DNA of 61,509 bases from a virus (Duplodnaviria > Caudoviricetes), in IMG/VR virus record IMGVR_UViG_3300025759_000004, positions 1-61,509 of that record. One strand, given 5' to 3'. The translations under genes and the position numbers were made by a program. The notes under the pieces were generated by a model, which was not told where the DNA came from, made no database searches, and worked only from the letters and a program-made list of their open reading frames with translations. Shown here piece by piece: positions 8,065-51,521 of the stretch. Position 1 is the stretch's first letter; the number at the start of each line of letters is the position of its first letter.

Positions 8065-8066
8065 AG

Positions 8067-10544: not shown

Positions 10545-10715
10545 TTATTTATATTGTTGTATTAATTTGTTTATATCTTTTAGATTTGAAAAATGGTAAT
10601 GGTATATAACTTGATCATTTGTTATATTGTAGACAGTAAAGTCATACATTTTGTATTTAGGTGAATAATAGATTTTGAAATAAGTTTTTGTTAAAGGAAA
10701 ATTGTTATTAAGCAT
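10545..10715 (-). CDS. 56-aa hypothetical protein (MLNNNFPLT...)
   Basis: Manual translation; directly downstream of a promoter motif. Confidence 0.5.
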   Translation of the reverse strand: MLNNNFPLTKTYFKIYYSPKYKMYDFTVYNITNDQVIYHYHFSNLKDINKLIQQYK

Positions 10716-10839
10716 TTTAGTTTATTTTAAATTAATATTTATATTTTAAATTCAACTATATTATCTATATTTACTCGTATTAAACCTATATGCTACGAAT
10801 TTGCTATACACGCCTTCGGCGTGCTGGAGCTGGTCCAGA

Positions 10840-10998
10840 TTAGAATATCTCGGACCAATGCTGCTCTTCCTCCTCCCAAAGATCGTCCCATTCAGATTCA
10901 GGCAGAATTACTGTTATGATGCCATCTGAATCAATACGATAGTTTATTTTGTTTTTGGTTAAATGATTTAGGACTTCAGGTTTGATATAATTTTTCAT
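10840..10998 (-). CDS. 52-aa protein with acidic C-terminus (MKNYIKPE...WDDLWEEEEQHWSEIF)
   Basis: Manual translation; first gene of the minus arm, downstream of a promoter motif. Confidence 0.55.
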   Translation of the reverse strand: MKNYIKPEVLNHLTKNKINYRIDSDGIITVILPESEWDDLWEEEEQHWSEIF

Positions 10999-11337
10999 AG
11001 TATATTAATATTTATATTTTAAATTCAACTATATTATCCTGATCCACTCGTGTCAAACCTATATGCTATACAGCTTCGCTGCGCTACGCTCCGCTCCGCG
11101 CTTTAACCAGGCCACAAAAACCCCGATAGCACCAGCAAAATCCAGCAAAAAGGCAAAACCTTTTCAAAGTATCGAAAAAATGGAGGGGGACCCCTTCACG
11201 AAAAACCTATTTTCTATTTAGGACCAGCCGTTTAAAACTAGCGGTAACCCAATAACCCTCTATAAGCAACGTATTTTTAGTTACAGCAGTAAAAAATTAA
11301 AAAAATATGTGAGTATATACATTATAATACTAATCAT

Positions 11338-11595
11338 ATGGCTAAACCAAAGAAAAAGGGAGGACCTAAGCAAAAATTAAGCCCTCTAGCTGCTCGAAGA
11401 AAGGCTAGAAGAGACTATTTATACGCAATGACTCCTCGTAGAAGACGAATGAAGGCAGAAAGTCAGCGTGCAAACTGTCCAAAAGGCCAAGATTACGACC
11501 ATAACACTAAAAAATGTGTTTCTTCCTCTCATAATCGCGGTGGAACACAGGCAAAACATAAAAAAGACGGTACAAAAGCCGAAAGAAAAGCATAA
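11338..11595 (+). CDS. Small basic protein with possible HNH-like remnant
   Basis: Very K/R-rich; GQDYDH...SHNRG. Confidence 0.55.
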   Translation: MAKPKKKGGPKQKLSPLAARRKARRDYLYAMTPRRRRMKAESQRANCPKGQDYDHNTKKCVSSSHNRGGTQAKHKKDGTKAERKA

Positions 11596-16037: not shown

Positions 16038-17594
16038 ATGTCAGACGCAATTGTCAAAAACTTGAACTTTGGAACAGAAGCTAGAGATCAAGTATTTAAA
16101 GGAATAGAAAAACTCACTAAAGCTGTTAGCTCCACGTTGGGAGCTAGCGGCCGATGTGTGATGTTAGAAGATAACACTGGAAAACCCATTATTACAAAAG
16201 ACGGTGTTACTGTAGCAGATTCAATAATCTTGCTAGATCCAGTTGAAAATATGGGTGCTACACTTTTAAAAGAAGCTGCTCGCAAAACAGTGCAAGAAGC
16301 GGGTGACGGCACAACAACGGCAACGGTACTAGCTCACTCTATACTAAGTGAAGCTTATAAAGTTGCTGATAAAACAAACTCAAGAGAGTTGAAAAACGGT
16401 ATTAATAAAGCTGTTAAAAATGTAGTTAAGTTTTTACAGTTAGTATCTGTAGACGTTAAAGGCGATATGATAGATCAAATTGCTACAATATCTACAAACA
16501 ACGACGCTAAACTTGGAAAAGTTATAGCGGATGCTTTTAGAGCGGTTGATAATACAGGTGTGGTTATGATGGAAACGGCTTCAGATGGTAAAACATATGT
16601 TGAAGTTGTTGATGGTGTCCAATATGAAAAAGGACTTAAGAACTCACACTTTATAACTAACAAAGCTAATAAAACGGCTGAGTTGGACAAACCGCTAGTG
16701 CTTTTATTAGAATCCCCAGTGGACACAATAAGACAGATTCAGTCTGTGCTAGAGTACGTAATAAAAAACAACAAACCTTTGCTTATTATAGGCGATTTAG
16801 AACAAGGTGTTTTATCAGCTCTGGCAATGAATAAAATGAAAGGCGCTATTAAAGTAAATGTTATTGATGCTCCAACATACGGTATCAATAAACAACAGAT
16901 GCTTCAAGACCTTTCGCTTTTAACTGGTGCCACTATCATAAACGAAGACCTTGGAGATGATATGGATATGATACAGCCAGAACACTTAGGAACTTGCATT
17001 AAAAGTGTTACTTCTCACGAAGATACAGTTTTACAAGTTGAAGAACCTTCTGAAGAAATATTAAGTGTTATAAAAGAATTAAAACAACAAGTATTAGAAG
17101 AAAAAAATCCTAATAAAGTTGTAAAGCTGGAAAAAAGATTAGCAATGCTTTCTGCTAAAATAGCAATTGTAAAAGTGGGTGCTAATTCAGAAATAGAACT
17201 AAAAGAAAAAACAGATAGGGTAGAAGATGCTATCTGTGCTACTAAAGCTGCTATTAAAGAAGGGATTGTTCCTGGTGGTGGTATTGCTCTATTAAATGCC
17301 GCAACAAATTTAAAAGCTAAGTCTATTGGTGAAACAGTTTTGCTAGAAGCTATTAAAGCGCCTTTTAAAACTATACTTGAAAACGCAGGTGTTGATAATG
17401 TTAAAACACCAACTAGAAAAGGACAAGGTTATAACGTGGTTACGGGAAAAATGGTAAATATGACAAAGTCAGGTATTATAGATCCTCTACTTGTTACCAA
17501 GAGCGCTCTTCAAAATGCAGCTTCCGTAGCGACTACGATTTTATCTACAGATTGTGTAATTAATAATCTAAGAATTAATGAAGGCAATAGGTAG
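16038..17594 (+). CDS. groEL: Chaperonin GroEL
   Basis: ITKDGVTVA, AGDGTTTATVLA, EGIVPGGG, GIIDP motifs. Confidence 0.97.
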   Translation: MSDAIVKNLNFGTEARDQVFKGIEKLTKAVSSTLGASGRCVMLEDNTGKPIITKDGVTVADSIILLDPVENMGATLLKEAARKTVQEAGDGTTTATVLAHSILSEAYKVADKTNSRELKNGINKAVKNVVKFLQLVSVDVKGDMIDQIATISTNNDAKLGKVIADAFRAVDNTGVVMMETASDGKTYVEVVDGVQYEKGLKNSHFITNKANKTAELDKPLVLLLESPVDTIRQIQSVLEYVIKNNKPLLIIGDLEQGVLSALAMNKMKGAIKVNVIDAPTYGINKQQMLQDLSLLTGATIINEDLGDDMDMIQPEHLGTCIKSVTSHEDTVLQVEEPSEEILSVIKELKQQVLEEKNPNKVVKLEKRLAMLSAKIAIVKVGANSEIELKEKTDRVEDAICATKAAIKEGIVPGGGIALLNAATNLKAKSIGETVLLEAIKAPFKTILENAGVDNVKTPTRKGQGYNVVTGKMVNMTKSGIIDPLLVTKSALQNAASVATTILSTDCVINNLRINEGNR

Positions 17595-17838
17595 AAATAT
17601 AATAATAAAAAAAGCTAAAGAAGGTACCACTAAAACAAAAGGAGGCCTTCTTTTAGCAGAAACACATAGAGACGATATAAGATATGTAGAAGCAACAGTT
17701 ATTTCGGCTGGCGATGAAATAAACAGTTTAAAAAAAGGTAGTGTCATACTTTATGATAGACACGCTGGACATAAAATAGAAGTTGAAAAAGAAGCATATC
17801 ACGTTATTAAAGTACAAGATGTTGTAGTTGTGTTATGA
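17578..17838 (+). CDS. groES: Co-chaperonin GroES
   Basis: TKTKGGLLL mobile loop; ATVISAG...KKGSVILY. Confidence 0.85.
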   Translation: MKAIGRNIIIKKAKEGTTKTKGGLLLAETHRDDIRYVEATVISAGDEINSLKKGSVILYDRHAGHKIEVEKEAYHVIKVQDVVVVL

Positions 17839-23233: not shown

Positions 23234-23460
23234 TGGATTCTGTAGTTAGAAAAATAAGCATTGGCTCAGACTACAAAAACGACGCAATGCATTATTCTGT
23301 AGGTCAGCAAGTTTATGGCGGTCATCAAATATCGCATATAATTTTTGATCAAACAGACAATTCGTATAATATACATATAAAAAAGAATAATGAAATATTG
23401 CCTTGGAAAAAATTCAATTCTAATATGGCTATTTCAGTTGAATACGATTTGGAGTACTAA
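23233..23460 (+). CDS. Conserved hypothetical protein
   Basis: RKISIGSDYKNDAMHYSVGQ; translationally coupled. Confidence 0.7.
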   Translation: MDSVVRKISIGSDYKNDAMHYSVGQQVYGGHQISHIIFDQTDNSYNIHIKKNNEILPWKKFNSNMAISVEYDLEY

Positions 23461-24065
23461 TGAATGCATTGTATGACTTTATTGTTAAACCTGTTGGTAA
23501 AAAATACAGTAATACAGTACAGGTTGGCGATAAAAAATTAGTTGTTAATACTAAAATTGAAAACTGGAAGTTTGTTAATAGATTAGCGGAGGTTATTCAA
23601 GTACCATTAGCTTTTAATACTGGTATAAAAAAAGGCGATAAAGTTATAATACATCAAAATGTATTTAGAACTTTTTATGATATGAAGGGTAAAAAGAAAA
23701 AAAGTAGATCTTTTTTAAATGAAGATCATCATCTTTGTTCTTTTGATCAAATATATTTATATAAAAATAAAAGTGGTTGGCACACTGTAGGCGAAAGATG
23801 CTTTGTCCAGCCTATAAAAGATAAGCAAGATTTAACTCTAAATAAAGAGCGAAGCCTTGTTGGTATATTAAAATACAGCAATAGCTCTTTAAAAGCGCTT
23901 AAAATTAACCCAGGGGACTTAGTTGGATTTACTCCAAATAGTGAATGGGAGTTTTTAGTTGATAATGAGCGATTGTATTGTATGAAATCAAATGATATTG
24001 TAATTAAATATGAATACCAAGGAGACGAAGAAAAATATAATCCAAGCTGGACGCAAAGCAGTTGA
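23460..24065 (+). CDS. Tandem GroES-like-domain protein
   Basis: Two GroES-like halves (FIVKP...GIKKGDKVII; CFVQP...INPGDLVGF...YCMKSNDI). Confidence 0.55.
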   Translation: MNALYDFIVKPVGKKYSNTVQVGDKKLVVNTKIENWKFVNRLAEVIQVPLAFNTGIKKGDKVIIHQNVFRTFYDMKGKKKKSRSFLNEDHHLCSFDQIYLYKNKSGWHTVGERCFVQPIKDKQDLTLNKERSLVGILKYSNSSLKALKINPGDLVGFTPNSEWEFLVDNERLYCMKSNDIVIKYEYQGDEEKYNPSWTQSS

Positions 24066-24285
24066 GGAGCTTATAAAAGTAGCTAAAGAGCCTATCGTTG
24101 ATTCTGATGATGATATTTCTGCAGATCGACTAAAAAACGCGGCTGCTACAAAAAAACTTGCTATTTTTGATGCTTTTGAAATACTTGCTAGAATTGAAAA
24201 CGAAGAAGATTTGTTGAATGAAAAACCAAAAGAAGTTAAAGAAGAAAGAACTTTTAAAGGTTTTGCAGAAGGTAGATCTAAGTAA
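24010..24285 (+). CDS. Putative terminase small subunit
   Basis: Small helical ORF coupled to the large subunit. Confidence 0.55.
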   Translation: MNTKETKKNIIQAGRKAVEELIKVAKEPIVDSDDDISADRLKNAAATKKLAIFDAFEILARIENEEDLLNEKPKEVKEERTFKGFAEGRSK

Positions 24286-26495
24286 TGTATAAGCAAACAT
24301 TATACAAAGTATTAAAAGACCATATAAGGCCTAATGTTTTAAAAAAACAAAATAGGTATAAAAAATGGGAGTATGGCTATAATAAAGATTACGATATTAT
24401 AGTTATAAGTAAAACAGGTGAGATAGGTGAAATATATGAAATACAAAATTTAAAAATAGCACTTCCTAAAGAAGCAAATGTATTTAAATTTAATTCTAAC
24501 ACCTGGGAACATACGCCATACCCAAAGGAACTTAAAAAAATAAAGTCAGTTTTTGACTGGGAAGAATACCCTAAAGACTTTAAAGAAAAGTGGTACGATT
24601 ATATAGACGACGAATTTATCAGAAGAGAAGAGGGCTTTTGGTTTTATAATAAAAACGTGCCGACTTATATTACAGGTACACATTATATGTATTTGCAGTG
24701 GTCTAAAATTGATGTAGGCCAACCTGATTTTAGAGAATCAAATAGATTGTTTTATATATTTTGGGAAGCCTGCAAAGCCGATCGAAGATCTTACGGTATG
24801 TGTTATCTTAAAAACCGCCGATCCGGATTTTCATTTATGTCATCAGCGGAAACCGTTAACATGGCAACTATATCTAGCGATTCAAGATTTGGTATATTGT
24901 CAAAGTCAGGGCCTGATGCTAAAAAAATGTTTACAGATAAAGTTGTACCGATATCGGTTAACTATCCTTTTTTCTTTAAGCCAATACAAGACGGTATGGA
25001 CCGTCCGAAAACTGAGCTTGCGTATCGCGTACCAGCTACTAAATACACAAGAAGGAAGCTTGAAACAAATGAAAAAGCTCAAGAACTTGATGGACTAGAC
25101 ACAACTATTGACTGGAAAAATACAGGTGATAATAGCTATGACGGTGAAAAATTAAAGTTATTGGTGCACGATGAAAGCGGTAAATGGGAAAGGCCTACAA
25201 ATATATTGAATAATTGGCGAGTAACAAAAACTTGTTTAAGATTGGGATCTAAAGTAATAGGCAAGTGTATGATGGGTTCAACTAGTAACTCTTTAGATAA
25301 AGGGGGAGATAACTTTAAAAAATTATACTATGACTCAGATGTTACCCAAAGAAACGCCAATGGACAGACTCGCTCAGGACTATATAGTTTGTTCATACCT
25401 ATGGAATGGAATTACGAAGGATACATTGATTCTTATGGGTTACCTGTATTCGATAAACCAAAAGGTGAGGTTAAAGGTCCCCAAGGTGAAATAATAGATC
25501 AAGGTGTAATTGAGTATTGGGAAAATGAAGTTGAAGGTTTAAAGCAAGATCAAGATGCATTAAACGAATTTTATAGACAATTCCCGCGCACTGAAAAACA
25601 TGCTTTTAGGGATGAGTCTAAAGAATCTTTATTTAATTTAACTAAAATATATCAACAGGTTGATTATAATGAAGATTTACAAAACTCTAATATAGTTTCA
25701 AAAGGAAACTTTCAGTGGGAAAATGGTATAAAAGACTCTAAAGTAATATTTGTTCCAAATCCTAATGGTAGGTTTAATATATCCTGGGTTCCTAGTGCAA
25801 ATTTACAAAATAGAGTAATAGTAAAAAACGGAATTAAGTATCCCGGCAATGAACATATGGGTGCTTTTGGATGTGATTCATATGATATATCAGGTACCGT
25901 AGGTAACAGAGGATCTAACGGAGCATTGCACGGGCTTACTAAGTTTAGTATGGAAGATGCCCCTCCAAATAGATTTTTTTTAGAATATATAGCTAGACCT
26001 CAAACTGCTGAAATATTTTTTGAAGATGTACTAATGGCTTGTGTATTTTACGGGATGCCATTATTAGCAGAAAATAATAAGCCAAGACTTTTATATCATT
26101 TTAAAAGAAGAGGCTATAGAGGGTATTCAATGAATAGACCCGATAAAAAATATAATAAGCTATCTACTACAGAAAGAGAATTAGGGGGAATACCTAACTC
26201 TAGTGAAGATATAAAACAAGCTCATGCCGCCGCTATTGAAACATATATTGAAACATTTGTTGGTTTAAATGAAACTGGCTATGGGGATATGTATTTTCAA
26301 AGAACGCTAGAGGACTGGGCTAAATTTAATATAAATAACAGAACAAAACACGATGCCTCTATTAGTAGCGGTTTAGCTATTATGGCTTGTAATAAAAATT
26401 TATATGCCCCATCAACTCCTGTAAATAGGGTTGTTTATAATTTAGGATTTAAAAAATACGACAACAAAGGTTTTGTGTCAAAAATAAAAGAATAA
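24285..26495 (+). CDS. terL: Terminase large subunit
   Basis: Walker A-like KNRRSGFS, Walker B LVHDESGK, MGST, nuclease GCDSYD...HDASIS. Confidence 0.92.
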   Translation: MYKQTLYKVLKDHIRPNVLKKQNRYKKWEYGYNKDYDIIVISKTGEIGEIYEIQNLKIALPKEANVFKFNSNTWEHTPYPKELKKIKSVFDWEEYPKDFKEKWYDYIDDEFIRREEGFWFYNKNVPTYITGTHYMYLQWSKIDVGQPDFRESNRLFYIFWEACKADRRSYGMCYLKNRRSGFSFMSSAETVNMATISSDSRFGILSKSGPDAKKMFTDKVVPISVNYPFFFKPIQDGMDRPKTELAYRVPATKYTRRKLETNEKAQELDGLDTTIDWKNTGDNSYDGEKLKLLVHDESGKWERPTNILNNWRVTKTCLRLGSKVIGKCMMGSTSNSLDKGGDNFKKLYYDSDVTQRNANGQTRSGLYSLFIPMEWNYEGYIDSYGLPVFDKPKGEVKGPQGEIIDQGVIEYWENEVEGLKQDQDALNEFYRQFPRTEKHAFRDESKESLFNLTKIYQQVDYNEDLQNSNIVSKGNFQWENGIKDSKVIFVPNPNGRFNISWVPSANLQNRVIVKNGIKYPGNEHMGAFGCDSYDISGTVGNRGSNGALHGLTKFSMEDAPPNRFFLEYIARPQTAEIFFEDVLMACVFYGMPLLAENNKPRLLYHFKRRGYRGYSMNRPDKKYNKLSTTERELGGIPNSSEDIKQAHAAAIETYIETFVGLNETGYGDMYFQRTLEDWAKFNINNRTKHDASISSGLAIMACNKNLYAPSTPVNRVVYNLGFKKYDNKGFVSKIKE

Positions 26496-28937: not shown

Positions 28938-30137
28938 ATGTCAGAAACAGTAAAACAAGAAGGCGATTTTAAATTAAAATCTAAACCTAAAAAATTAGTG
29001 CCAACGAATGATGAACCCATTAAAGTTAATTTAGCTGAACCAAAAGCGGCTGAAGAAACGGAAGGTGATATCGCAAAGGTGGTAATTAAAAACGAAGACA
29101 AAGATGCCGTTCAAGAACAAGGCTCAGAGGACAGCGTGTTACGCTCAAGCGAGCCGGATGAAAAAACAGGGCAAGAAACCAACGTGGAATTGCCAACAGT
29201 GGGACAAGGAGACGAAGGGCCCGTTGAAAATGTTATTCAAGAAATAACAGAAGAAAAAGTTGAAAAAATAGAGCAAGAGGTAAAAGAGGCTGTACAAAAT
29301 AAAGAAGTATTAGGCAAACCTTTACCGGAAAATATTGAAAAGCTAGTTTCATTTATGGAAGAAACAGGTGGCACAATAGAAGATTACGCTCGATTAAATA
29401 TTGATTATTCAAATGTAGATAACAATACATTGCTTAAGGAGTATTATAGTAAAACAAAACCTCATTTAGATTCAGAAGATATTTCAATATTAATGGAAGA
29501 TTTCTCCTATGATGAAGAACTAGATGAGCCAAAAGAAATACGCAAAAAGAAAATTGCGTTTAAAGAAGAAGTTGCAAAAGCCAAAAACTTTTTAGAGGAA
29601 ACTAAGAAAAAATATTACGACGAAATCAAGTTGAGACCCGGCGTAACTCAGGACCAACAAAAAGCTATGGACTTTTTCAATCGATATAATGAAGGTCAGA
29701 AAAAGGCTGCTGAAAATTATGAAAGTTTTAAACAAAAAACTGAAAATTTATTTTCTGAAGAATTCGAAGGTTTTGAATTTAATTTAGGAGAAAAGAAATT
29801 TAGGTATAATGTTTCAAACCCAAAAGAGGTGGCTTCAATTCAATCGGATATTAACAACATCGTAGGGAAGTTCCTTGCGGAAGATGGTAGTGTTGTAGAC
29901 GAGAAGGGTTATCATAAGGCCATGTTTGCAGCTTACAATGCTGATAAAATAGCAAGTCATTTTTACGAACAAGGTAAAGCTGACGCTGTTAAAGAGGTTG
30001 TAAGTAAATCTAAAAATCCAAGTATAGATACTGCCAGAGAGGCACCAAAAGATGTATTTATAGGAGGGTTAAAAGTTAGAGCAATAAGTGGTACTGATTC
30101 TTCTAAACTAAAAATTAAAACAAAACGATTTAACTAA
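28938..30137 (+). CDS. Putative capsid scaffolding protein
   Basis: Acidic; between portal and MCP; FYEQGKADA motif. Confidence 0.65.
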   Translation: MSETVKQEGDFKLKSKPKKLVPTNDEPIKVNLAEPKAAEETEGDIAKVVIKNEDKDAVQEQGSEDSVLRSSEPDEKTGQETNVELPTVGQGDEGPVENVIQEITEEKVEKIEQEVKEAVQNKEVLGKPLPENIEKLVSFMEETGGTIEDYARLNIDYSNVDNNTLLKEYYSKTKPHLDSEDISILMEDFSYDEELDEPKEIRKKKIAFKEEVAKAKNFLEETKKKYYDEIKLRPGVTQDQQKAMDFFNRYNEGQKKAAENYESFKQKTENLFSEEFEGFEFNLGEKKFRYNVSNPKEVASIQSDINNIVGKFLAEDGSVVDEKGYHKAMFAAYNADKIASHFYEQGKADAVKEVVSKSKNPSIDTAREAPKDVFIGGLKVRAISGTDSSKLKIKTKRFN

Positions 30138-30151: not shown

Positions 30152-31615
30152 ATGGCTATATCACCAGAATTTGGTTCAATTAAACCATCTCAAGCCCAAC
30201 AAACACTTAGTGACAATTATTTGTCATTCGACGGCGCTGCCGGAGGAAACTTTGCGCAACAGTATTTACCTGAGATTTACGAACAAGAAGTAGAGCGTTA
30301 CGGAAACCGTACGTTATCTGGATTCTTACGTATGGTAGGTGCTGAAATGCCAATGACATCTGATCAGGTTATCTGGTCTGAACAAAATAGACTACACGTT
30401 GCATATGATGATGTTACTGTCACAAATGGAACAACTTTAACAATTAATAATATTTCTGCGGTTGCAGGACCTAACTTTGTACAAAACTTAGTTTCAAAAA
30501 ACCAAACTTTAGTTGTAATTAATCCAGCTACTGGAAAAGAAGCTAAATGTATTGTTACAGTTACTCCTGCTTCAACAGCCACAGCTACAATTGCTGTTGC
30601 AACTTATGGATCTGCTGATTTAGTAACTGCAAATGGTGCAGATAACCCTGCTCCTTTTGCTACAAATGACGCAGTAAAAATCTTCGTATACGGTTCTGAA
30701 TATCAAAAAGGATCAACTTTAGTTGGAGATGCCTATGTAAGCATTGAACCAACTTTTACTCAATTTTCTAATTCACCAATCATCATTAGAAACCAGTATC
30801 AAGTATCTGGATCTGATATGGCTCAGATTGGATGGGTAGAAGTTGCTACTGAAGACGGAACATCTGGATACTTATGGTATTTAAAAGCTGAATCTGAAAC
30901 TCGTTTACGTTTTGCAGATTACTTAGAAATGTCTGTAGTAGAAGGTAAAAAAGTTGTTACTGGTGACGGTGTTGCAGGATATAACACTAAATTATCAGGA
31001 ACTCAAGGTCTTTTTGACGCAATTGAAGACAGAGGTAATATCCAAACTGGATTTACAGCTGCTAATGGTCTTACTGAATTTGATGCTATTTTGAAAAATC
31101 TTGATACTCAAGGGGCTATTGAAGAAAACATGCTTTTCTTAAATCGCCAAACTGCATTAGATTTTGATGACATGCTAGCTGCTTTGTCTCAAGGGCAATC
31201 AGGAGGTACTGCTTATGGTCTATTTGAGAACTCAGAGCAAATGGCTTTGAATCTTGGATTTAGCGGTTTCCGTAGAGGATCTTACGATTTTTACAAAACT
31301 GACTGGAAATACTTAAACGACGCTTCTACTCGTGGTGCACTTGATTACACTGTACAAGGAATTGAAGGTGTATTAGTACCAGCTGGAACTTCAACTGTTT
31401 ACGATCAAATCTTAGGAACTAATATCCGTCGTCCATTCTTGCACGTGCGATATAGAGCTTCTCAAGCTGATGACCGTAGAATGAAGTCTTGGTTGACTGG
31501 TTCAGCAGGAGGCGCTTTCACATCTGATCTTGATGCAATGCAAGTTAACTTCTTGTCTGAAAGATGTTTATGTGTACAGGCTGCTAATAACTTTGTAATT
31601 TTCAAAGGAGCTTAA
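30152..31615 (+). CDS. Major capsid protein
   Basis: 487 aa, strong codon bias, follows scaffold, followed by a terminator. Confidence 0.85.
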   Translation: MAISPEFGSIKPSQAQQTLSDNYLSFDGAAGGNFAQQYLPEIYEQEVERYGNRTLSGFLRMVGAEMPMTSDQVIWSEQNRLHVAYDDVTVTNGTTLTINNISAVAGPNFVQNLVSKNQTLVVINPATGKEAKCIVTVTPASTATATIAVATYGSADLVTANGADNPAPFATNDAVKIFVYGSEYQKGSTLVGDAYVSIEPTFTQFSNSPIIIRNQYQVSGSDMAQIGWVEVATEDGTSGYLWYLKAESETRLRFADYLEMSVVEGKKVVTGDGVAGYNTKLSGTQGLFDAIEDRGNIQTGFTAANGLTEFDAILKNLDTQGAIEENMLFLNRQTALDFDDMLAALSQGQSGGTAYGLFENSEQMALNLGFSGFRRGSYDFYKTDWKYLNDASTRGALDYTVQGIEGVLVPAGTSTVYDQILGTNIRRPFLHVRYRASQADDRRMKSWLTGSAGGAFTSDLDAMQVNFLSERCLCVQAANNFVIFKGA

Positions 31616-39592: not shown

Positions 39593-40987
39593 ATGGCAAC
39601 TACATTAGGTATACAATACTATAATTCCTTTTGGCTCAAAAAGAAAGATTTTAGCGATCCCACAAATTTTGCTAAAAGTTGGTATATTGAAGAGTCTAGA
39701 ATTAAGGGAGGATTTAACAATGTAGGTGTTGGTAATGGTTCTAGAGCGTATACAACTTTAAAAGACAACTCGCAAAGATTTTTACCAAGCTCTATAATAT
39801 ATTCCGGGATTTACAATTCAAGAACTACAATAAATCAAACTAATGTATTTTCTGTAGCGGAAGATATAACAAAAGCTGTTGATCCTGAATATGGAAGCAT
39901 TCAAAAACTATATGCAGAAGATACAAATTTAACAATATTTCAAGAAAGTAAAATACATAGAGCGTTAATAGATAAAGATGCGGTTTATACTGCTGAAGGA
40001 AGCGCTATGACCACTACTAGTAATGTTGTAATTGGACAAATTCAAGCTTATGCTGGCGAATATGGCATATCACAAAATCCAGAAAGCTTTGCTGTATATG
40101 GCTATAGAAAATATTTTGCTGACAAAGATAGATCTGCTATATTAAGATTGTCACAAGACGGTATTACAGAAATATCATCATATGGTATGAAGGATTGGTT
40201 TAGAGATGCTTTAGGTCAAAATACATTAAATAATCTTATTGTTGGTGGTTGGGATATACATAATAAAAACTATACTTTATCAATACAGAATTTAACAAAT
40301 AATTACACATTAGTTTACGACGAATCAGTGCAGGGTTGGGTTAGCTTTCATAGCTATGTACCTGAATTTATTTTTAGTTTAAAAAATAGATTCTTTTCAA
40401 CAGGAGGTAGTGGTACAAATGCTGGATTATGGCAACATTATGCAGACTCTACATCAAGAGGAAGCTATTATGGAGAATCCATTCAAAGGTCATCAATTAC
40501 TTTTATATTTAATCCTGTACCATCAGCTCAGAAAACTTTTAAAACAATTGCGTACGAAGGATCTAATGGGTGGGAGATGTTAAACGCATTTAGTGGTAGT
40601 CAGGGAGCTCAAGCAATTATTCCAGGGCAATCAAATATTTCAACATTTGCAGACAGGTCTAATAAAATTAGAAGTTATTTAGAAGGTTCTTATGATTCAG
40701 CTACACCGCCTAATACTGGTTCAGCGGCATCGCAGTATCCAATATATCATTCAGGCTTTGATATTAAAGAAAATAAATATGTGGGTGCTTTACAGAAAAG
40801 CTCTAAAACATCGGTAATGCCGGGACAGGTGTTATTTAATTTAAATCCGGCGTTTGCGCAGCCAACATTAGGAATAAAAGGTTATTTTATGACTGTAACC
40901 ATGAGCACTGATAACTCAACTGATGTAGGAGGTGGTAAAGAATTATTTGCTGTATCCTCAGAATATAACCCACTTAATGGATATTAA
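39593..40987 (+). CDS. Tail stabilisation protein, C-terminal-like part
   Basis: YGSIQKL, YAGEYGISQNPESFA, GWVSFHSYVPE, KTFKTIAYEG motifs. Confidence 0.7.
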   Translation: MATTLGIQYYNSFWLKKKDFSDPTNFAKSWYIEESRIKGGFNNVGVGNGSRAYTTLKDNSQRFLPSSIIYSGIYNSRTTINQTNVFSVAEDITKAVDPEYGSIQKLYAEDTNLTIFQESKIHRALIDKDAVYTAEGSAMTTTSNVVIGQIQAYAGEYGISQNPESFAVYGYRKYFADKDRSAILRLSQDGITEISSYGMKDWFRDALGQNTLNNLIVGGWDIHNKNYTLSIQNLTNNYTLVYDESVQGWVSFHSYVPEFIFSLKNRFFSTGGSGTNAGLWQHYADSTSRGSYYGESIQRSSITFIFNPVPSAQKTFKTIAYEGSNGWEMLNAFSGSQGAQAIIPGQSNISTFADRSNKIRSYLEGSYDSATPPNTGSAASQYPIYHSGFDIKENKYVGALQKSSKTSVMPGQVLFNLNPAFAQPTLGIKGYFMTVTMSTDNSTDVGGGKELFAVSSEYNPLNGY

Positions 40988-43883: not shown

Positions 43884-46800
43884 ATGGAGTTAGAAGAGTA
43901 CATTGACAGCCTTGTGGCTCAAGGTTTGTCTCAAGAAGAAATAAAAAAATTAGTAGACGAGTTTATTGCTAATGGTAATCAAGTTCCTGAAGCTAATATA
44001 GAATTTAAACAAGCGGTAGGGCAAAAGCCTTTAGAAATAGCAAAGATAAATGTCGGTGTGCCGGGTGCAGTTGCATCGACGGAAATACTAGCACCAAAGT
44101 CGGAATCATTATTGGAAGATGGTTTTGTGGAATCAGTATTGGCTCCAGATACACCGGAAAATAATTTAGAAAGACGAGCACAAGGATTTATACCCCCTAA
44201 TCATTACTTAATTAAGCAAGGAGACAAAACCCATTTAGATTTTTACGAAGGCATTGATTTTATGGGGCAAACCCCAGAGGATTTTAAGCAAATGGAAATA
44301 AAGCCATGGGATAATTTTTCATTAGAAGATAAAACTAAAGCTAAATTAAAATATAAAGATTTAGATATTGAATTTCCTTATTATTATTTTGGTGACGACA
44401 ATAGTTCTTTTGTAGAAAATAATTATGGTACAGAAGAATTAAAAGCGCTTAATATAGATATAAAAGATTTTGATGGGTTTTTAAAAGAAAGAGGTCTTTC
44501 TGACGACTTTATTAAAAAACAAAACACTGGTTTTTATAAAGCTGAAGTTAGTGATAATCCTTTTAATTTAGACTCATCTGTACAAGCTGAAAACCAAAAT
44601 AAGCTAGACATTGCAAAAGAGAGACAGCTTAGAAAAATGCTTAATCTTTATGTTGAAGACAGAAACAAAAGATCTAGAGAAAAACAGGCTGCTGAATATA
44701 TTTTTTCTAACCCTGAAAATTTAGAAGAACAAGAGCTTATAAAAGCCGCAAAGAAAATAGAAAATGGCCAGCAGGGCTTATTAGACCCTTCATCTTTCAG
44801 CGCTTATTATGAATATCAATTTCCAACATCTACAGCAAAAGATAGAGAATATTTAGCTGCTAAAATTGACGAAGTATCCAGGCTTGAAAGCCAAGGCAAA
44901 GTTAAAGCAGGCTTAATGGGGCTTTTAGATTTTGGATCAAATTTTGTAAGTGGGTTTCAAAATGAAGTGGCAGGTACGGTTGCTACTATAAGTGATGTAT
45001 TAGGATTTGAAAATGCTGCAGATGAAATACGTGTGCAGGAAGAAGAAGAAATGTTAGCGGACCCTAGTATGTCTTATGCTCGCGTTCAAGGTAAAAAAGT
45101 AACTATTGACGATATTGAATACATTAAGAATGAAGACGACGGTCAAATATATAATACCACTGTAGGCTATAATATAGGGTATACAACGTCTCCAATTGAA
45201 TACAAAAGAATTAGCGATGCTTTAGATAAAAGCGAAGAAGAGGGATCGGATTGGGATGCTAGAGGAATGGCTATTCAGGCTGGGCAAGTTACAGGCGGTA
45301 TTACCTTTCAGGTTATTGGAACGAAAGGGTTAGGTGGCATTACCAGCGCTGCAGCAACAAGAGCAGCAGCATATGCTAATGGATTCAAAACAGTTGCTGA
45401 ATATAAAAAGGTTAGAGATTTAGCTCAAGCTATAGGTGGTGCTAAAGTTCCAAATTTTAGGGTTCCTATTAAAAAGTCTACTGTTGACTTAATTACATTT
45501 CAATCAATGTATGGAGCATCCTTGGGTTATGAAGAAACACTAAAGCAAGCTAGAGCTGCTGGATTAGGTGATGATAAATCCTATGAATTAGCAACTAGTG
45601 CTGCAGGGCAAATGTCTGTTTTATTTGCTTTAACCGCTAGATTAAACCCAAGAACAAAAGCAACTGAAGCTTTATTTGGGAAAACAGGTATTAGAAGCCA
45701 AATAACAAAAGCAATTAATTCTTACAAAACAGAAGGGCAAAAAGGGTTTTTAAATAGTCTTACTAATGGTATTAAAAACACAGTGGCTAACCTACCAAAA
45801 ACAGCAACTGTATTTGCAGAAGAAGGTACTAAAGAAGTATTTCAAGAAAATGTTCAGCAGTTTGGTGAATATACAATTATAAATGAAAATATTAATCAAG
45901 AAGTTGGCTTTGATCTTTTAAAAGATACATATACAATTAATGATATTAAAGTTACAACTGCATTATCATTTTTAACAGCAGGAGGTCTTGCAAATGTTAG
46001 AACGCCTAATTTTAAGCCAGATCCATTAAACCAACTTAGAACATTTTATAGTATTGGTTCAGATTTAAATTTGTTAAAAACTAATTTAGATAAAATGGTT
46101 TTAAATGGCGATATTACGCAAGATGAATCTAAAAAGGTTTTTAGAGATGCTAAAGCTGTTTATACACAATTGGATAAGATGCCTTCTAATATTGATCCGT
46201 CAATTACATTAGAAGTTGCTAATGCTTTACAAAATATTCAAGACTTAGAAGTTGAAAAGAAAAATACAGATCCAGCATTTCACGGGCCTATAAACGAAAG
46301 ACTGGAACAAGCTAGACAAGAGCTTGGAGATATTTATATAAACCAAGATGTTACAAAAGCTCAAAGAGCTATGAAAGCTTTAGGCTTAAAAGGCGAAACA
46401 AAAGCGGCAAACACCGATAATGAATTCCAAGGTTATTTAAGAACTTTGGTAGATTCCGATGGCAAACAAATATACACGGAGGAACAAATACAAGATATTA
46501 ATAGAATTGGTGTTTTTGTAGACAATACAGGGGATATATTAATAAATAAGGCAGCGGCTAGAAGATTAGGCGTAACAGAAACAGGTAGACATGAGTTTTT
46601 ACATAGGTTAATTTATACAACTGTAAAAGGAAAGCCAGAACTTATATCTAAAATAGGTAAAGATTTAGATGCATATGTTACTGAATTAATTGCAAAAGGC
46701 GATTTAAAAGGAGGCAAAAACTTTAAAGTAGATTTACAAGGCTATAAAGATAGAGCTTCTGCTAAAATTGATAGAATAAACGAACTAAGACAAAAAGCTA

Positions 46801-49800
46801 AACAATACTTGGATCAAGGCGCTTTAACGCAAGAAAAGTATGATGCTTACATGGAGGGCTACAATAAAACAGAACTTCAAATAGAAGCAAATACGTTTGA
46901 AGAAGTACTCACCTTGTTATCTGAAAGTATTGCTACAGGTGATTTAGTTTATGAAAAAGATCAAGATTTATTTGTTAAAATAACAGATTACATAAGAAAT
47001 TTTTTACAATCAATTGGTGTTACCGATATAAATCTAAAAGATGGTAAAGCTACATTTAATTTTATAAGAGACTATAATAAAGCTTTTGATAAAACCGAAT
47101 TTAATAAAGCATTTCAAAAATTAGCTGACACAGTTGCCGATCCTAATGTTGAAGATTCTATATTTATTAAAGAATCTACAAAAATTAATGAAGATCGTAA
47201 TAAAAAAGTTGACGACTTTGTAGGTCCTAAAGATGCTGATGGTAATTATATTATGACAAAAAAAGAGTGGGATTCCGGAGGAATTGCCACTGCTTATATG
47301 GAAATTATTGGAGGTACGGCTTTAGACGGTTTGATTAGAAGAGGTATAGAAGGTAACTCTGTATACGGAAAACCTATTGAAACATTTTTAGAAGACGTTA
47401 AGCAAGGTTTAACTGGAACTTTAATGAGATTTAACCCTGAAGAAAACAATAGCTTAATGGGTTGGATTAATGGCCAAATGGCGGCCCGTAAAGGTGATGT
47501 GCTTAATAAATACAAAAAAGAACAACCGTTAGGAAGTAAGTCATTAGATGTTGAAGCCGGGGAGGTTGGTTCAGTAAGAGAAGCTGTTGCTGAAGAAACC
47601 GCTGAAGACTTTATAACTACAGAAGAAAGATTAGCAGAGCAAGAAGCCTCACTTAAAAGAGGACCCTCATTTTTAGAGGCATTACCTGTTGACCAAAAAA
47701 CAGGGGAAAAATCTTTTAAAGATGAAATTAGAGAAGAGGTAGATAAAAGAATTAAAAGGAATATACAATTTTTTGATGCTGCTACATCTGCTAATAGAAC
47801 TGTAAAGCCTTTTATTGCAGAAATTAAAAAAGATTTAAGTGATAATTTTTACAAGCAAACTAGAAAATGGTTTAATAATTACGAGGGTGGATATGAAGGT
47901 TTTTTAAGAGATTTTAGAGTAGATTTGCTAAATAACTACACAACAACATATTTATCTAAACATCCTATTTTTAGAAAAGGCATATTAAAAAGAATTAATG
48001 GTAAATGGACAGCGCCTAAAAAAGTTAGAAGTTCATACGGAGGGTTTAAGTATGACTGGGTAGACGACAATGGCAAAAAATTAAAGATAGACAGGGATGA
48101 TGCAGCTGGAAGAGGTTTAACTTCTGGGCCTGAATTTATAAAAAGAAACCCCAACATTACTAAACTCATCGGGGAAAATGAATTTATTGATTACCATTTT
48201 GAAGATGGTGCTTTACGTAAAAAACGTAAACAAAATCCAGAAAAAGCTTTAGCTATTCAGCTTGCTAGCGAAATTGGATTAGAAATATTACAAAATGATT
48301 TATTAACAACTGATGAAAGCGGTAATATTATTGGCGGCCCATTAACAGAAGCTATTATTGACAGAGCGGGTTTATTAGAAATGGTTTTAGCAGATAACGC
48401 CATGATAACATTAGCGAGCGATATTGATAGAGGTAATGTTAAAGAGTCATTAAAAAAGAGTGTTGTTAAACCAATATATGAAAAAGGATTAGATATTTTA
48501 GCTCAGCAAGGAGAAACAGCTTTTAATGAATATATTGATGGCTTACCTGATCAAGAAGCGGCTCAATATGTTAAACGCTATTTTGATGACAAATATTGGC
48601 AAGTAGGTTTGTATCAAAGCGCTAAAGCTAAAAATAGAGGTTTAGCTTATGAAAAACTTGTAAAAAGAGTTTTAAGTTCAAGCGGAAACAGAGATATTAA
48701 AGTTGAATTAATTGGTAAAAACCCTAAAATGGGTGGTGATATTTTATTAAAATTTAAAAATACCAATATAGCCATAGAATTAAAACTTAATGAATTTGCT
48801 CAAATGGGTAGTTTTACTATAAAAAATGTAGACGGAAAACCTGTGTTTACTTTAAGGAACATGAGCCCCGAGTTAGAAAATTCAATAAAAGAAGCTTTAG
48901 AAAAAAGACAGCCAGCTTTAGATAGATATTTTGAAGAAGCTAAAAAATATGCAGAACAAAATGGTTATGCTATACTAATTGAAAATAACGAAATTCGCGC
49001 CCCAAAACCAGTATTTGAATACTTAAGAGCTGAAGGCTTTTTAGAAAAAACAAATGTAACAGTAAAAGCGGATCAAAGGATTATAAATGCATTATACCGA
49101 GCTAAAGAGGTTTATTACATGAATATCGGGGACAAAGGGCTATTTGCTCTTGGTAAAGATATATATAACTTAGGTGTACCTGTTCTTTATTCTGATGTTG
49201 ATTTGGTTATAAGACTAACAAGAACTTACGATGCTAAATATGGAAGAATTGCTACAACTAGAGCCTTCCCTGTTCTTAATGGTAATTTAATAACACCATC
49301 TAAATCTTTAGATAATGCTTCTAGCGTAACAGAATTGCTAGATAACTTTCAAAATTCAATTAAAGAATCTACTAAAAAAGAAGAGCAAAAACCTGAACAA
49401 GAAAAAATAACTAGTGATATAAGTTCAGAGTTTAATAAAATGATGGAAGAAATATCCGGAATTCCTAAAGATGAAGTAATATCGCAAGCTAGGGGTAAGG
49501 TACTAGGTAAAAATAAAAGCGGAACTTGGTTTATACCATATAGTCATGAGGATTTTGTTGGACTTATGTACCCATTGCTAGCCAAAGGCAAAAAGGGTGA
49601 GCAGCAATATGAATATATTAAAAATAATATAATACAACCTTACGCTGAAGCTGAGTACAAAATAAATCAAGAAAGGCTTAGAACCGCCGCTGATTTTAAA
49701 GCACTTAAGGCGCAAATAGAAGAGCAATTAGGCAAATCAAAAAATACATTTACAAGATCGCCTTTAAGTAAACTTTTAAACAAAGAAGCTTGGTCCGGAT

Positions 49801-51521
49801 TTAAAAATGAGGATGCGGTAAGAGTATTTTTATGGAATTTACAAGGAATGGATATTCCTGGATTAGATGCTAAAGATATAAAAAAGTTAGTTAGTATAGT
49901 TAATACTAATGCAGAGTTGCTTAAATACGCCTTTGGTATAAAAAGTTTAATGAAAGGTATGGAATACCCCGCCGCTAAAAAAGGTTGGGAGACAAGCAAT
50001 ATTTCTTATGACATCCAGCAAAATTTAGAAACAACACGAAGAAAAGAATTTTTAGCTAATTGGCAAGAAAATGTTGATCAAGCTTTTTCTAAAGAAAATA
50101 TGGCAAAACTTGAAGCTATATTTGGCCCTAAATATGTTGAGGCTTTAAGAAATATATTAGAAAGAATGCGTACGGGCAAAAATAGGAAAGCAAATAATAG
50201 TAGATTAGAAAATGCCTTACTGGATTATTTTAATGGATCTGTGAGTGCTATTATGGCTTTAAACACAAAATCAGCAGTGTTACAGCAGCTTTCAAATATA
50301 AACTTTTTAAATTGGACAGATAATAACCCAATAGCGGCCGCGAAAGCTTTTGGCAATCAAAAACAATACTGGAGAGATGTTATTGATATTTTAAATTCAG
50401 ACTATCTTGTTAATAGACGAGCTGGATTAAAAATAAATGTAACAGAATCAGAGCTTGCTGCAATGGCTAATTCTAAAAATAAGGTAAGAGCTTTTATTGG
50501 TTTGATTGGTGAAAAAGGTTTTATACTTACAAAGTACGGAGATAGTTTTGCAATTGCAACCGGAGGAGCAACTTTTTATAGAAATAGGTTTAATACTTAT
50601 TTAAATCAAACAGATGCTGATGGTAATAAAATCTATACAGAAGAAGAAGCTAATAAAAAGGCTATGGTTGATTTTATCGAAATATCGGAAGATACTCAGC
50701 AATCATCTAGACCTGATAAAATTAGCATGCAACAAGCGGGTAACCTGGGTAGGTTAATATTAGCGTTTGCTAATACACCCTCTCAGTATGCGAGGCTTAC
50801 TAAAAAAGCATTGTTAGATTTAAAAAACGGTAGAGGAAGTAAACGTGAGAATATAATGAAAATAACATATTATGGCTTTGTGCAAAATTTAATATTTTCA
50901 TTTATGCAGCAAGGATTGTTTTCAATATTCTTTGGAGATGATGACGATGAAGAAATTAAAACAATTAAAGAAGCAGAAGAAAAGGCTCAAAGAAAACAAA
51001 AGCAAGCTTTTAAAGCGGCTAATGGTGCATTTGATGGATTTTTAAGAGGGCTTGGCGTTATGGGAGGTTTAGCAAGTACTTTAAAAAATATGGGTATTAA
51101 AGTGTACGAAAAGTCAAAAAGAAAAAGACCTGATTATGCAAGCACAGCTTATGAATTACTAAATATTTCTCCGCCTATTGATTCTAAGCTTTCAAAAATT
51201 AGAAGTGGGTTTGCTGCTCTTGATTTTGATTTAGAAGAAATAAAGAAAAAAGGATTTAAGGATATTTCAAATCCAGGATACATGGCTGGAGCAAGGGTAA
51301 TAGCGGGAACTACAAATGTAGGGATAGATAGAATTTTTACAAAAGGAAGAAACATAGCTAATGCTTTTGATTCTGAGTTAGCAACTTGGCAAAGAATATT
51401 TTCTTTAGGTGGATGGCAAGGATATGAGTTAGGTATTGAAGACGAGGAAGATGATGATCCAAAAAAGTTTTTAGATTTAAACATTAATATAGATTTAGAA
51501 TTGCCAAAAATAAAATTATAA
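43884..51521 (+). CDS. Giant multidomain (polyvalent) virion ejection protein, 2545 aa
   Basis: HEFLH zincin motif, sigma-region-2-like segment, PD-(D/E)xK-like motif, hydrophobic segments. Confidence 0.75.
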   Translation: MELEEYIDSLVAQGLSQEEIKKLVDEFIANGNQVPEANIEFKQAVGQKPLEIAKINVGVPGAVASTEILAPKSESLLEDGFVESVLAPDTPENNLERRAQGFIPPNHYLIKQGDKTHLDFYEGIDFMGQTPEDFKQMEIKPWDNFSLEDKTKAKLKYKDLDIEFPYYYFGDDNSSFVENNYGTEELKALNIDIKDFDGFLKERGLSDDFIKKQNTGFYKAEVSDNPFNLDSSVQAENQNKLDIAKERQLRKMLNLYVEDRNKRSREKQAAEYIFSNPENLEEQELIKAAKKIENGQQGLLDPSSFSAYYEYQFPTSTAKDREYLAAKIDEVSRLESQGKVKAGLMGLLDFGSNFVSGFQNEVAGTVATISDVLGFENAADEIRVQEEEEMLADPSMSYARVQGKKVTIDDIEYIKNEDDGQIYNTTVGYNIGYTTSPIEYKRISDALDKSEEEGSDWDARGMAIQAGQVTGGITFQVIGTKGLGGITSAAATRAAAYANGFKTVAEYKKVRDLAQAIGGAKVPNFRVPIKKSTVDLITFQSMYGASLGYEETLKQARAAGLGDDKSYELATSAAGQMSVLFALTARLNPRTKATEALFGKTGIRSQITKAINSYKTEGQKGFLNSLTNGIKNTVANLPKTATVFAEEGTKEVFQENVQQFGEYTIINENINQEVGFDLLKDTYTINDIKVTTALSFLTAGGLANVRTPNFKPDPLNQLRTFYSIGSDLNLLKTNLDKMVLNGDITQDESKKVFRDAKAVYTQLDKMPSNIDPSITLEVANALQNIQDLEVEKKNTDPAFHGPINERLEQARQELGDIYINQDVTKAQRAMKALGLKGETKAANTDNEFQGYLRTLVDSDGKQIYTEEQIQDINRIGVFVDNTGDILINKAAARRLGVTETGRHEFLHRLIYTTVKGKPELISKIGKDLDAYVTELIAKGDLKGGKNFKVDLQGYKDRASAKIDRINELRQKAKQYLDQGALTQEKYDAYMEGYNKTELQIEANTFEEVLTLLSESIATGDLVYEKDQDLFVKITDYIRNFLQSIGVTDINLKDGKATFNFIRDYNKAFDKTEFNKAFQKLADTVADPNVEDSIFIKESTKINEDRNKKVDDFVGPKDADGNYIMTKKEWDSGGIATAYMEIIGGTALDGLIRRGIEGNSVYGKPIETFLEDVKQGLTGTLMRFNPEENNSLMGWINGQMAARKGDVLNKYKKEQPLGSKSLDVEAGEVGSVREAVAEETAEDFITTEERLAEQEASLKRGPSFLEALPVDQKTGEKSFKDEIREEVDKRIKRNIQFFDAATSANRTVKPFIAEIKKDLSDNFYKQTRKWFNNYEGGYEGFLRDFRVDLLNNYTTTYLSKHPIFRKGILKRINGKWTAPKKVRSSYGGFKYDWVDDNGKKLKIDRDDAAGRGLTSGPEFIKRNPNITKLIGENEFIDYHFEDGALRKKRKQNPEKALAIQLASEIGLEILQNDLLTTDESGNIIGGPLTEAIIDRAGLLEMVLADNAMITLASDIDRGNVKESLKKSVVKPIYEKGLDILAQQGETAFNEYIDGLPDQEAAQYVKRYFDDKYWQVGLYQSAKAKNRGLAYEKLVKRVLSSSGNRDIKVELIGKNPKMGGDILLKFKNTNIAIELKLNEFAQMGSFTIKNVDGKPVFTLRNMSPELENSIKEALEKRQPALDRYFEEAKKYAEQNGYAILIENNEIRAPKPVFEYLRAEGFLEKTNVTVKADQRIINALYRAKEVYYMNIGDKGLFALGKDIYNLGVPVLYSDVDLVIRLTRTYDAKYGRIATTRAFPVLNGNLITPSKSLDNASSVTELLDNFQNSIKESTKKEEQKPEQEKITSDISSEFNKMMEEISGIPKDEVISQARGKVLGKNKSGTWFIPYSHEDFVGLMYPLLAKGKKGEQQYEYIKNNIIQPYAEAEYKINQERLRTAADFKALKAQIEEQLGKSKNTFTRSPLSKLLNKEAWSGFKNEDAVRVFLWNLQGMDIPGLDAKDIKKLVSIVNTNAELLKYAFGIKSLMKGMEYPAAKKGWETSNISYDIQQNLETTRRKEFLANWQENVDQAFSKENMAKLEAIFGPKYVEALRNILERMRTGKNRKANNSRLENALLDYFNGSVSAIMALNTKSAVLQQLSNINFLNWTDNNPIAAAKAFGNQKQYWRDVIDILNSDYLVNRRAGLKINVTESELAAMANSKNKVRAFIGLIGEKGFILTKYGDSFAIATGGATFYRNRFNTYLNQTDADGNKIYTEEEANKKAMVDFIEISEDTQQSSRPDKISMQQAGNLGRLILAFANTPSQYARLTKKALLDLKNGRGSKRENIMKITYYGFVQNLIFSFMQQGLFSIFFGDDDDEEIKTIKEAEEKAQRKQKQAFKAANGAFDGFLRGLGVMGGLASTLKNMGIKVYEKSKRKRPDYASTAYELLNISPPIDSKLSKIRSGFAALDFDLEEIKKKGFKDISNPGYMAGARVIAGTTNVGIDRIFTKGRNIANAFDSELATWQRIFSLGGWQGYELGIEDEEDDDPKKFLDLNINIDLELPKIKL

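Follow-up and report, generated by a model that had tools for sequence, protein, structure and literature searches.

Can a giant phage protein carry both a protease and the sites at which that protease would cut it? This question is raised by the IMG/VR virus record IMGVR_UViG_3300025759_000004 (Duplodnaviria; Caudoviricetes), whose whole stretch of 61,509 nucleotides (hereafter the window) encodes a giant protein of 2545 amino acids (aa) in one open reading frame (ORF). The original prediction, made from the nucleotide sequence alone, had placed a zincin protease in this protein (HEFLH with a downstream EE pair) together with three short repeats at apparent module borders, and had proposed that KES is the signal by which the modules are released. 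Translation confirmed all five elements (HEFLH, EE, and the three hexamers) within the single 2545-aa ORF, at the coordinates listed below. When relatives were included, the hexamers were found to read as members of a family-wide motif, aliphatic-K-x-S-(K), which is confined to the polypeptide behind the protease domain and avoided in front of it. We consider it somewhat better than an even bet (a probability of about 0.55) that this motif is the recognition site for self-processing of a virion cargo polyprotein by the embedded zincin.

Features of the giant ORF:
43884-51521, + strand: giant ORF, 2545 aa, between tail/muzzle-like genes and an amidase lysis gene
46068-47138, + strand: zincin-like protease domain (aa 729-1085), supported by the AlphaFold model from alignment A3, fold matches and the invariant HExxH...E
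46590-46604, + strand: HEFLH (aa 903-907; H903, E904, H907), on model helix 172-186
46899-46904, + strand: EE (aa 1006-1007), on model helix 255-290, with E1007 as a candidate for the third zinc ligand
47166-47183, + strand: site 1, IKESTK (aa 1095-1100), about 10 residues past the last confident protease helix
47193-47537, + strand: sigma-region-2-like helical domain (aa 1104-1218), from structural matches to sigma factors
47661-48437, + strand: conserved domain (aa 1260-1518), with many invariant columns (alignment A1), ending D-x-D/E-R-G-N
48438-48455, + strand: site 2, VKESLK (aa 1519-1524), at the end of the conserved domain in an R-G context
48456-49358, + strand: PD-(D/E)xK nuclease-like module (aa 1525-1825), from conserved signature residues
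49359-49376, + strand: site 3, IKESTK (aa 1826-1831), ahead of the conserved C-terminal module
49416-51455, + strand: conserved C-terminal module (aa 1845-2524), common to nearly all of the best 120 of 141 relatives

A motif at the joints behind the protease domain

Motif counts were compared with analytic expectations. In the giant protein, the KES tripeptide was detected exactly three times, at the three sites (1.0 expected from composition), and aliphatic-K-x-S-x-K was also seen three times (0.47 expected), with none in the 10,514 aa of the remaining 31 + strand ORFs (1.7 expected). The looser aliphatic-K-x-S pattern was not enriched in the giant protein alone (5 seen, 5.0 expected), and therefore the case from this one sequence is modest. 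A fourth loose match, PIKKST, lies in the N-terminal region (45468-45482; aa 529-533), and one other [IVLM]K[EF]S match among the real genes of the window is at 36132, in the gene for a 1655-aa protein.

A homologous-protein search identified 141 relatives of 1399-4454 aa, the best 120 of which were examined. By BLASTP, similarity between the giant protein and its relatives was found to occur in blocks ending at about aa 1081-1100 and 1522-1531 and starting at about aa 1808-1850, which bears out the earlier placement of the hexamers at module borders. In an enlarged set of relatives of <80% identity, 222 of 415 alignment end-points fell within 30 aa of a site compared with 31 expected if uniform, these sequences being related and their end-points not mutually independent. 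As to whether the hexamers fall inside folded domains, a concern raised in the original prediction, the sites were located in coil or low-confidence segments of two AlphaFold models: (i) a model of aa 851-1850, based on 45 sequences with a mean predicted local distance difference test (pLDDT) of 63.8; and (ii) a model of the protease domain. Sites 1 and 3 lie in stretches with pLDDT <50 in the former model, and site 2 occupies a coil of nine residues that connects two helices (pLDDT 60-64). In the protease model the IKEST of site 1 is drawn, at a pLDDT of about 51-53, as a short beta strand.

Alignment of homologues, proposed earlier as a check of KES, gave a divided outcome in that the borders keep a motif in distant relatives, but as aliphatic-K-x-S-(K) and not as KES. 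The hexamer pattern [IV]KESxK is kept at site 1 in the 26 closest proteins (P0001-P0026) and at all three sites in P0001-P0005, while more distant relatives have aliphatic-K-F-S at the equivalent joints, as in P0099 (HExxH at 852; KFS at 1004, 1369, 1752, and 2156). Because KFS occupies the same joints and is mixed with KES within one protein (L005 and L010), E is not the specific letter of the motif as judged by sequence comparison. In the site 1 logo (117 of 121 dereplicated sequences), position -3 is I/V/T/A/L in 91 sequences and position -2 is K in 60; position -1 varies (K 24, E 20, F 14, A 13) and is followed by S in 89 or A in 13, and then by K (+1) in 52. The site 2 logo (26 dereplicated sequences) has R, G, an aliphatic residue, and K in 26 each and S in 24, with a variable residue between K and S (F 9, L 6, R 4, E 2) and no conservation after S. 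With E in only 20/117 sequences at site 1 and 2/26 at site 2, the claim that KES itself is the signal had to be given up. For site 3, 123 sequences were right-justified to the start of the C-terminal module, the automatic alignment having set IKES under a separate upstream 'DVKSK'; so placed, position -10 is aliphatic, -9 is K in 44 sequences, -8 is K in 33 and F in 25, -7 is S in 59 and A in 14, and -6 is K in 43. Site 3 in relatives reads aliphatic-K-(F/K/E)-S-K and is situated 6-10 residues before the module start, and in a further 120 proteins found by the C-terminal module alone the motif stands behind several unrelated upstream sequences. Overall, the motif is conserved in position at the three joints down to about 25-40% identity.

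Enrichment was also examined free of alignment. In a first set of 70 dereplicated proteins, aliphatic-K-F-S was seen 52 times (18.2 expected), with at least two copies in 13/70 proteins (2.0 expected), and the controls (T for S, R for K, other middle residues, and reversed order) were at or below expectation. Family-wide tripeptide over-representation was uninformative, being dominated by conserved domain positions. An independent set was then drawn from a search of 1.84 billion representatives with the A3 profile, which at E ≤ 0.001 matched 2018 cluster representatives, a number that falls to 1346 at 1e-10 and to 706 at 1e-30; the best 150 of these 2018 matches were almost all giant proteins or fragments thereof, and 148 of them were new, all with HExxH. 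The counts in these 148 proteins were as follows.

Aliphatic-K-x-S-K: upstream of the protease, 10 seen (13.8 expected); +120 to +215 after HExxH, 56 seen (5.3 expected); further downstream, 155 seen (43.4 expected)
Aliphatic-K-F-S: upstream of the protease, 0 seen (6.1 expected); +120 to +215 after HExxH, 4 seen (1.1 expected); further downstream, 96 seen (17.8 expected)

Aliphatic-K-x-S-K was thus enriched 10.6-fold just behind the protease and 3.6-fold further downstream, with no enrichment upstream, and the controls (T for S, R for K, and reversed order) ranged from 0.44 to 1.37 of expectation. In 113 dereplicated proteins with HExxH the motif was enriched 3.9-fold (123 seen, 31.7 expected), which differed from the enrichment in proteins without HExxH at a binomial p = 0.003.

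The zincin-like domain and the modules that follow it

Alignment A3 combines aa 729-1113 with 51 domain segments taken from IMG/VR loci, and four of its columns are invariant: H903, E904, H907, and E1007. E1007 was kept in 121/121 dereplicated sequences and E1006 was E or D in 110/121, whereas the invariance of H903, E904, and H907 in this set is not independent since these residues were its selection criterion. HExxH was present in 110/121 proteins of the first set. The AlphaFold model of the domain generated from A3 (mean pLDDT 88.8, predicted template modeling score 0.86) begins with a long helical region, after which come a small sheet, the helix with HExxH, an insert, and the long E1007 helix. 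In this predicted structure strands 111-114, 146-151, and 156-160 precede helices 161-167 and 172-186, HExxH and E1007 are on two helices behind the small sheet with about 100 residues separating HExxH from the conserved Glu, and the fold ends near aa 1085. The model therefore has the elements of the zincin type, namely an HExxH helix, a downstream Glu helix, and a preceding small sheet, and the zincin protease claimed from the HEFLH signature is retained as a conserved zincin-like domain of confident fold. E1007 would serve as a zinc ligand, and the domain is presumed to have peptidase activity.

Comparison with solved structures gave a resemblance of middling strength. In a structural second look at Foldseek's 1000 best chains, 13/50 rows were anthrax lethal factor and 1/50 was Certhrax (Z 5.9-6.5, 146-195 residues aligned), including the lethal factor entries 4wf6 (Z 6.1, root mean square deviation [rmsd] 4.2, 146 aligned, 16% identity, chain residues 600-776) and 4dv8 (Z 6.5, 195 aligned). 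Lethal factor was the only consistent solved look-alike, covering aa ~818-1080; the likeness is one of fold, with no sequence relation, and nothing suggests a toxin role here. A wide structure search with the protease model returned rows filled by one long helical hairpin (residues 40-95), and the aa 851-1850 model had no Foldseek match in PDB at E ≤ 0.001. Weak rows in BFVD were thematically consistent (a structural protein of Flavobacterium phage elemoC, LPD proteins, and MuF_C proteins). The nearest neighbors of aa 860-1094 in a language-model search, useful as leads only, were clusters with LPD23, LPD1/LPD5, ART-PolyVal, and MuF_C (scores 0.83-0.95). Sequence profile searches of PDB with A1 and A3 returned chance-level rows, MPTase-PolyVal (PF18818) had no match at E ≤ 10 in the genome, and none of 52 domain sequences matched a Pfam family at threshold, with SprT-like (2/52, best E 0.0096) and Peptidase_M78 (2/52, best E 0.046) detected below it.

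The labels 'sigma-like' and 'nuclease-like' given earlier to the next two regions hold as resemblances. For aa 1104-1218, 20/50 structure rows were sigma factors or holoenzymes (Z 4.9-6.8, all below Z 8; rmsd 2.2-4.0 for the compact alignments), with five such rows in another search; the clearest was 5h6x_A, an RpoS region 1.2-2 fragment (Z 6.1, rmsd 2.9, 85/94 residues). The Sigma70_r2 profile had no match at E ≤ 10 on aa 1095-1518, its sole match in the genome being at 1609-1758 (- strand). The conserved domain that follows (aa 1260-1518) was modeled at a pLDDT of mostly 72-90. In the third module, the PD-(D/E)xK signature is formed by E1590, D1619, E1632, and K1634, residues present in ≥85% of 14 diverged sequences; the model suggests a helix-strand-strand-strand-helix-strand order at low confidence (core pLDDT 28-57), and no Pfam match was detected for this module.

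That modules may be exchangeable among relatives was also suggested earlier, and relatives do differ in this third slot, before the C-terminal module: it is PD-(D/E)xK-like here and a P-loop kinase (AAA_33/Zeta_toxin) in 3 of 15 scanned relatives (P0086, P0092, and P0099), with a weak RecU match in P0119. A kinase in this slot is common among the relatives. In these kinase-bearing proteins (P0099 aa 1822-1964 onward) the stretch after the kinase ends 'FYFADD...DVKSKVQQAK'. We take the kinase and this following stretch to be a polynucleotide kinase-phosphatase-like module, with HAD motifs as the presumed mark of the phosphatase part. The C-terminal module itself is matched by 767 proteins at E ≤ 1e-10; its nearest Atlas clusters are unnamed and viral, and the nearest named ones (leads only) are LPD38 (0.93) and LPD39 (0.95). 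Short proteins that seemed to be stand-alone copies of this module appear to be contig-end or gene-caller fragments and were set aside.

Proposed self-processing and its competitors

With zincin-like, sigma-2-like, and PD-(D/E)xK-like domains, the giant ORF combines several unrelated functional domains in one phage ORF and can be classed among the polyvalent proteins. The position of its gene among structural genes, and the parallels of phi24B gp47 and the crAss001 cargo proteins, suggest that it is probably carried in the virion and passed on to the host. In the self-processing scheme, this cargo would consist of an N-terminal region, the embedded peptidase (aa 729-1085), two payload modules, and the conserved C-terminal module. 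The first cut would be made in cis at site 1, directly behind the peptidase's own fold, followed by cuts at sites 2 and 3. If made just before the conserved Ser, these would yield (i) aa 1-1097, the N-terminal region and protease; (ii) aa 1098-1521, the sigma-2-like and conserved domains; (iii) aa 1522-1828, the PD-(D/E)xK-like nuclease; and (iv) aa 1829-2545, the conserved C-terminal module. The cut is placed before Ser because a conserved Ser with a free preceding residue fits a metalloprotease with its main pocket for the residue after the cut; positions after Ser or before Lys are equally open. What the sequences show is the motif, its place in linkers at module borders, its conservation across the family, its confinement behind the protease, and the conserved HExxH...E domain. 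We infer the virion location, the active peptidase, cutting at the motif, the bond, and the timing of the cuts, which may be made in the capsid or after delivery.

Several points weigh against self-processing. Cleavage is a proposal from sequence and models for the giant protein and every relative alike, and no fold match of the protease model reached Z 8, nor did Foldseek return anything at E ≤ 0.001 for it in PDB or BFVD. The logos may be flattered, as MAFFT on variable linkers can inflate column conservation, and the family counts come from sequences related by descent, which are not independent events. About half of the relatives have an incomplete site 3 motif or none; strict aliphatic-K-x-S was found no more than 30 residues before the C-terminal module in 53/102 proteins with HExxH compared with 4/15 without it (Fisher p = 0.096). 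The 21 dereplicated relatives without HExxH are still 1.8-fold enriched in the motif (13 seen, 7.2 expected). The site 2 motif directly adjoins the invariant R-G at which the conserved domain ends, and so may be structural. Finally, peptidase domains of this kind are found in N4 virion RNA polymerase, ArdC, and TraC1, all of which are packed or transferred uncut (PMC5512222), so a peptidase domain alone does not imply processing.

An alternative is that the motif is an element of joints that stay uncut, such as a hinge, a docking or threading signal for packing or for extrusion via the portal/tail, or a domain cap, an explanation that we hold possible but rather doubt. The zincin domain would then act on host proteins or the cell wall, or serve encapsidation only. 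The persistent enrichment without HExxH and the R-G fusion at site 2 fit such an element, as do two precedents: the peptidase-bearing region of the uncut N4 virion RNA polymerase is needed for encapsidation (PMC5512222), and the metallopeptidase of phi24B gp47 is proposed to degrade peptidoglycan (bioRxiv 10.64898/2026.04.10.717836). However, a four-position motif that recurs behind unrelated domains argues against a domain cap, the motif lies in linkers with similarity stopping right after Ser, and its depletion upstream of the protease with enrichment only downstream is as expected for the sites of a cis-acting protease.

Cleavage at the motif by another protease, either a host enzyme or an unrecognized phage maturation protease, we judge to be decidedly unlikely. 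The T4 prohead protease cuts by a Leu/Ile-x-Glu rule, and the three sites of the giant protein, which read I/V-K-E-S, would fit it; moreover, a 399-aa ORF without a family match (28938-30137) lies between the portal and capsid genes. Yet the Glu position is variable across the family (20/117 at site 1, 2/26 at site 2), none of the other 31 + strand ORFs, the portal and capsid-like proteins included, has the strict pattern, and the motif enrichment tracks the presence of HExxH. Profiles of Peptidase_S78, Peptidase_S77, and CLP_protease (ClpP) had no match at E ≤ 1 across the complete genome, in which the embedded zincin-like domain is the sole recognizable protease. With Glu not conserved and no prohead-protease family in the genome, the sites were rejected as T4-type prohead protease substrates. 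Chance or composition, that is, three similar hexamers arising in a Lys-, Glu-, and Ser-rich protein of 2545 aa, is scarcely credible: the loose pattern is at expectation and one exact hexamer repeat is not rare at such length (a rough estimate of ~0.2 expected pairs), but this reading is already contradicted by the positional conservation at all three joints and the enrichment in the 148 proteins, with flat controls in two separate sets and the motif coinciding with homology breakpoints.

Overall, the original interpretation is partly supported: the modules, their borders, and the protease hold, the signal becomes K-x-S, and cleavage itself is a prediction.

Genomic setting and comparison with known systems

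The genome record is that of a complete virus (61,509 bases, direct terminal repeats, estimated completeness 100), and the genome is podovirus-like. Its terminase (24285-26495), matched by 87 phage records in all, has 65% identity to that of the uncultured podovirus record MW202828 and about 44% identity to terminases of Flavobacterium, Cellulophaga, Tenacibaculum, and Maribacter phages. Other features of the window are:

11595-52358, + strand: gene block with tail-fibre-like, GroEL/GroES-like, terminase, portal, capsid-like, and muzzle-like genes, then the giant ORF and the amidase
16038-17594, + strand: GroEL-like chaperonin (PHROG E 8e-134)
17578-17838, + strand: Cpn10 gene (Pfam E 9e-13)
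23460-24065, + strand: second GroES-like gene (PHROG E 4e-24)
28938-30137, + strand: 399-aa ORF, flanked by the portal and capsid-like genes, no Pfam/PHROG match
30152-31615, + strand: capsid-like gene (weak Crass_capsid match, E 0.0011)
39593-40987, + strand: muzzle-like gene (crAss_MUZ E 2e-9; crAss_MUZ_C E 2e-8)
1102-1863, - strand: 253-aa ORF with a Sigma70_r2 match at 1609-1758 (E 4e-5, 19.6 bits, cut-off 24)

The crAss_MUZ, crAss_MUZ_C, and weak Crass_capsid matches suggest a structural kinship with crassviruses in a far smaller genome. GroEL-like, Cpn10, and second GroES-like genes are all found in this one 61-kb podovirus-like genome, the position of the 399-aa ORF suggests a scaffold, and a separate sigma-like protein seems to be encoded by the 253-aa ORF besides the sigma-2-like domain of the giant protein.

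The whole giant protein and five pieces of it had no family match in Pfam or PHROGs, and the ORF had none by tblastn and megablast against 50,697 phage records. Named members of its family are all annotated 'hypothetical protein', a cluster look-up yielded no names, and none of the relatives that turned up is from a cultured phage. The closest record by terminase, MW202828, encodes at the equivalent position a 3860-aa protein with two HEFGH motifs (741-12320, - strand) that has no significant BLASTP similarity to the giant protein (best E 0.05); the genomic slot is retained and its occupant is different. Near the N-terminus (43896-43980; aa 5-32) the giant protein has the peptide E-Y-I-x-S-L-x-x-Q-G-L-S-x-E-E-I, which begins at residue 5 (one at residue 8) in 20/290 giant proteins of differing downstream sequence, is present in L002 and L040 too, and may be a packaging or targeting signal. 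A hydrophobic-window scan of the giant protein found no 19-residue window >1.3. Natural split genes at the motif sites were not found among the relatives; in L002 (5908-12103) the giant gene occupies two overlapping frames (1337 aa and 737 aa), with the switch about 30 codons before the C-terminal module and not at a motif site, which is probably an assembly frameshift.

Self-processing by zincin-like MPTase domains is a published hypothesis for polyvalent proteins (Iyer, Burroughs, Anand, de Souza, and Aravind 2017, PMC5512222). Like the proteins described in the parts of that paper covered here, the giant protein is one phage polypeptide with unrelated enzyme-like domains and an HExxH...E peptidase, and 4dv8, quoted there for the N4 domain, is also matched by its domain (Z 6.5, as above). 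Unlike that set, its domain matches no Pfam model used there, and a junction motif is defined here with its position relative to the peptidase, whereas no recognition motif is named in the parts covered. In the portions of the literature on polyvalent proteins and cleavage sites that were consulted, the 2017 proposal was found and no defined sites were. The giant-protein family therefore makes the 2017 hypothesis testable, as it offers exact candidate sites (K1096/S1098, K1520/S1522, and K1827/S1829) and a single predicted catalytic residue, E904.

A likeness by description is gp47 of phi24B, a large polyvalent protein of 2811 aa detected in virions by mass spectrometry (bioRxiv 10.64898/2026.04.10.717836): it too comes from a phage with a short tail, combines a metallopeptidase with LPD domains in one giant chain, and is proposed to be packed in the capsid and ejected. 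No relation in sequence between the two was seen, no search aimed at one having been made. Its peptidase is assigned to peptidoglycan degradation, and the sections of the preprint covered report no gp47 processing. In crAss001 the cargo and RNA-polymerase block with its ejected proteins (gp45, gp46, gp47, gp49, and gp50; PMC10172136) is encoded where the giant ORF lies, a few genes past a muzzle-like gene, and the main text of that paper is without the words protease, proteoly-, or cleav-. The likeness to crAss001 is one of gene position; similarity to those proteins in sequence did not come up, no search aimed at it having been made, the two-barrel RNA polymerase motif not being among the motifs identified in the giant protein. 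The family to which the giant protein belongs is large, environmental, and unannotated, with thousands of members, and if self-processing is true many giant 'dark' phage genes would be annotated along with the start and end of each payload.

RNA-virus polyproteins likewise contain a protease of their own and have short conserved sites where domains join, with the site depleted elsewhere. They differ in being translation products cut by serine or cysteine proteases, whereas the proposal here concerns the virion cargo of a DNA phage and a zincin. The furthest extension of the proposal is a private cleavage code, aliphatic-K-x-S-K, read by the protein's own novel zincin, with a released sigma-region-2-like payload that would capture host RNA polymerase; we regard this as a long shot. 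As we read this scenario, such a payload is present in many family members. If it is true, early transcription would be served by an injected sigma-like factor that self-cleavage has set free in finished form, and this would be a third strategy besides injecting a whole polymerase, as in N4 and crassviruses, and relying on host sigma.

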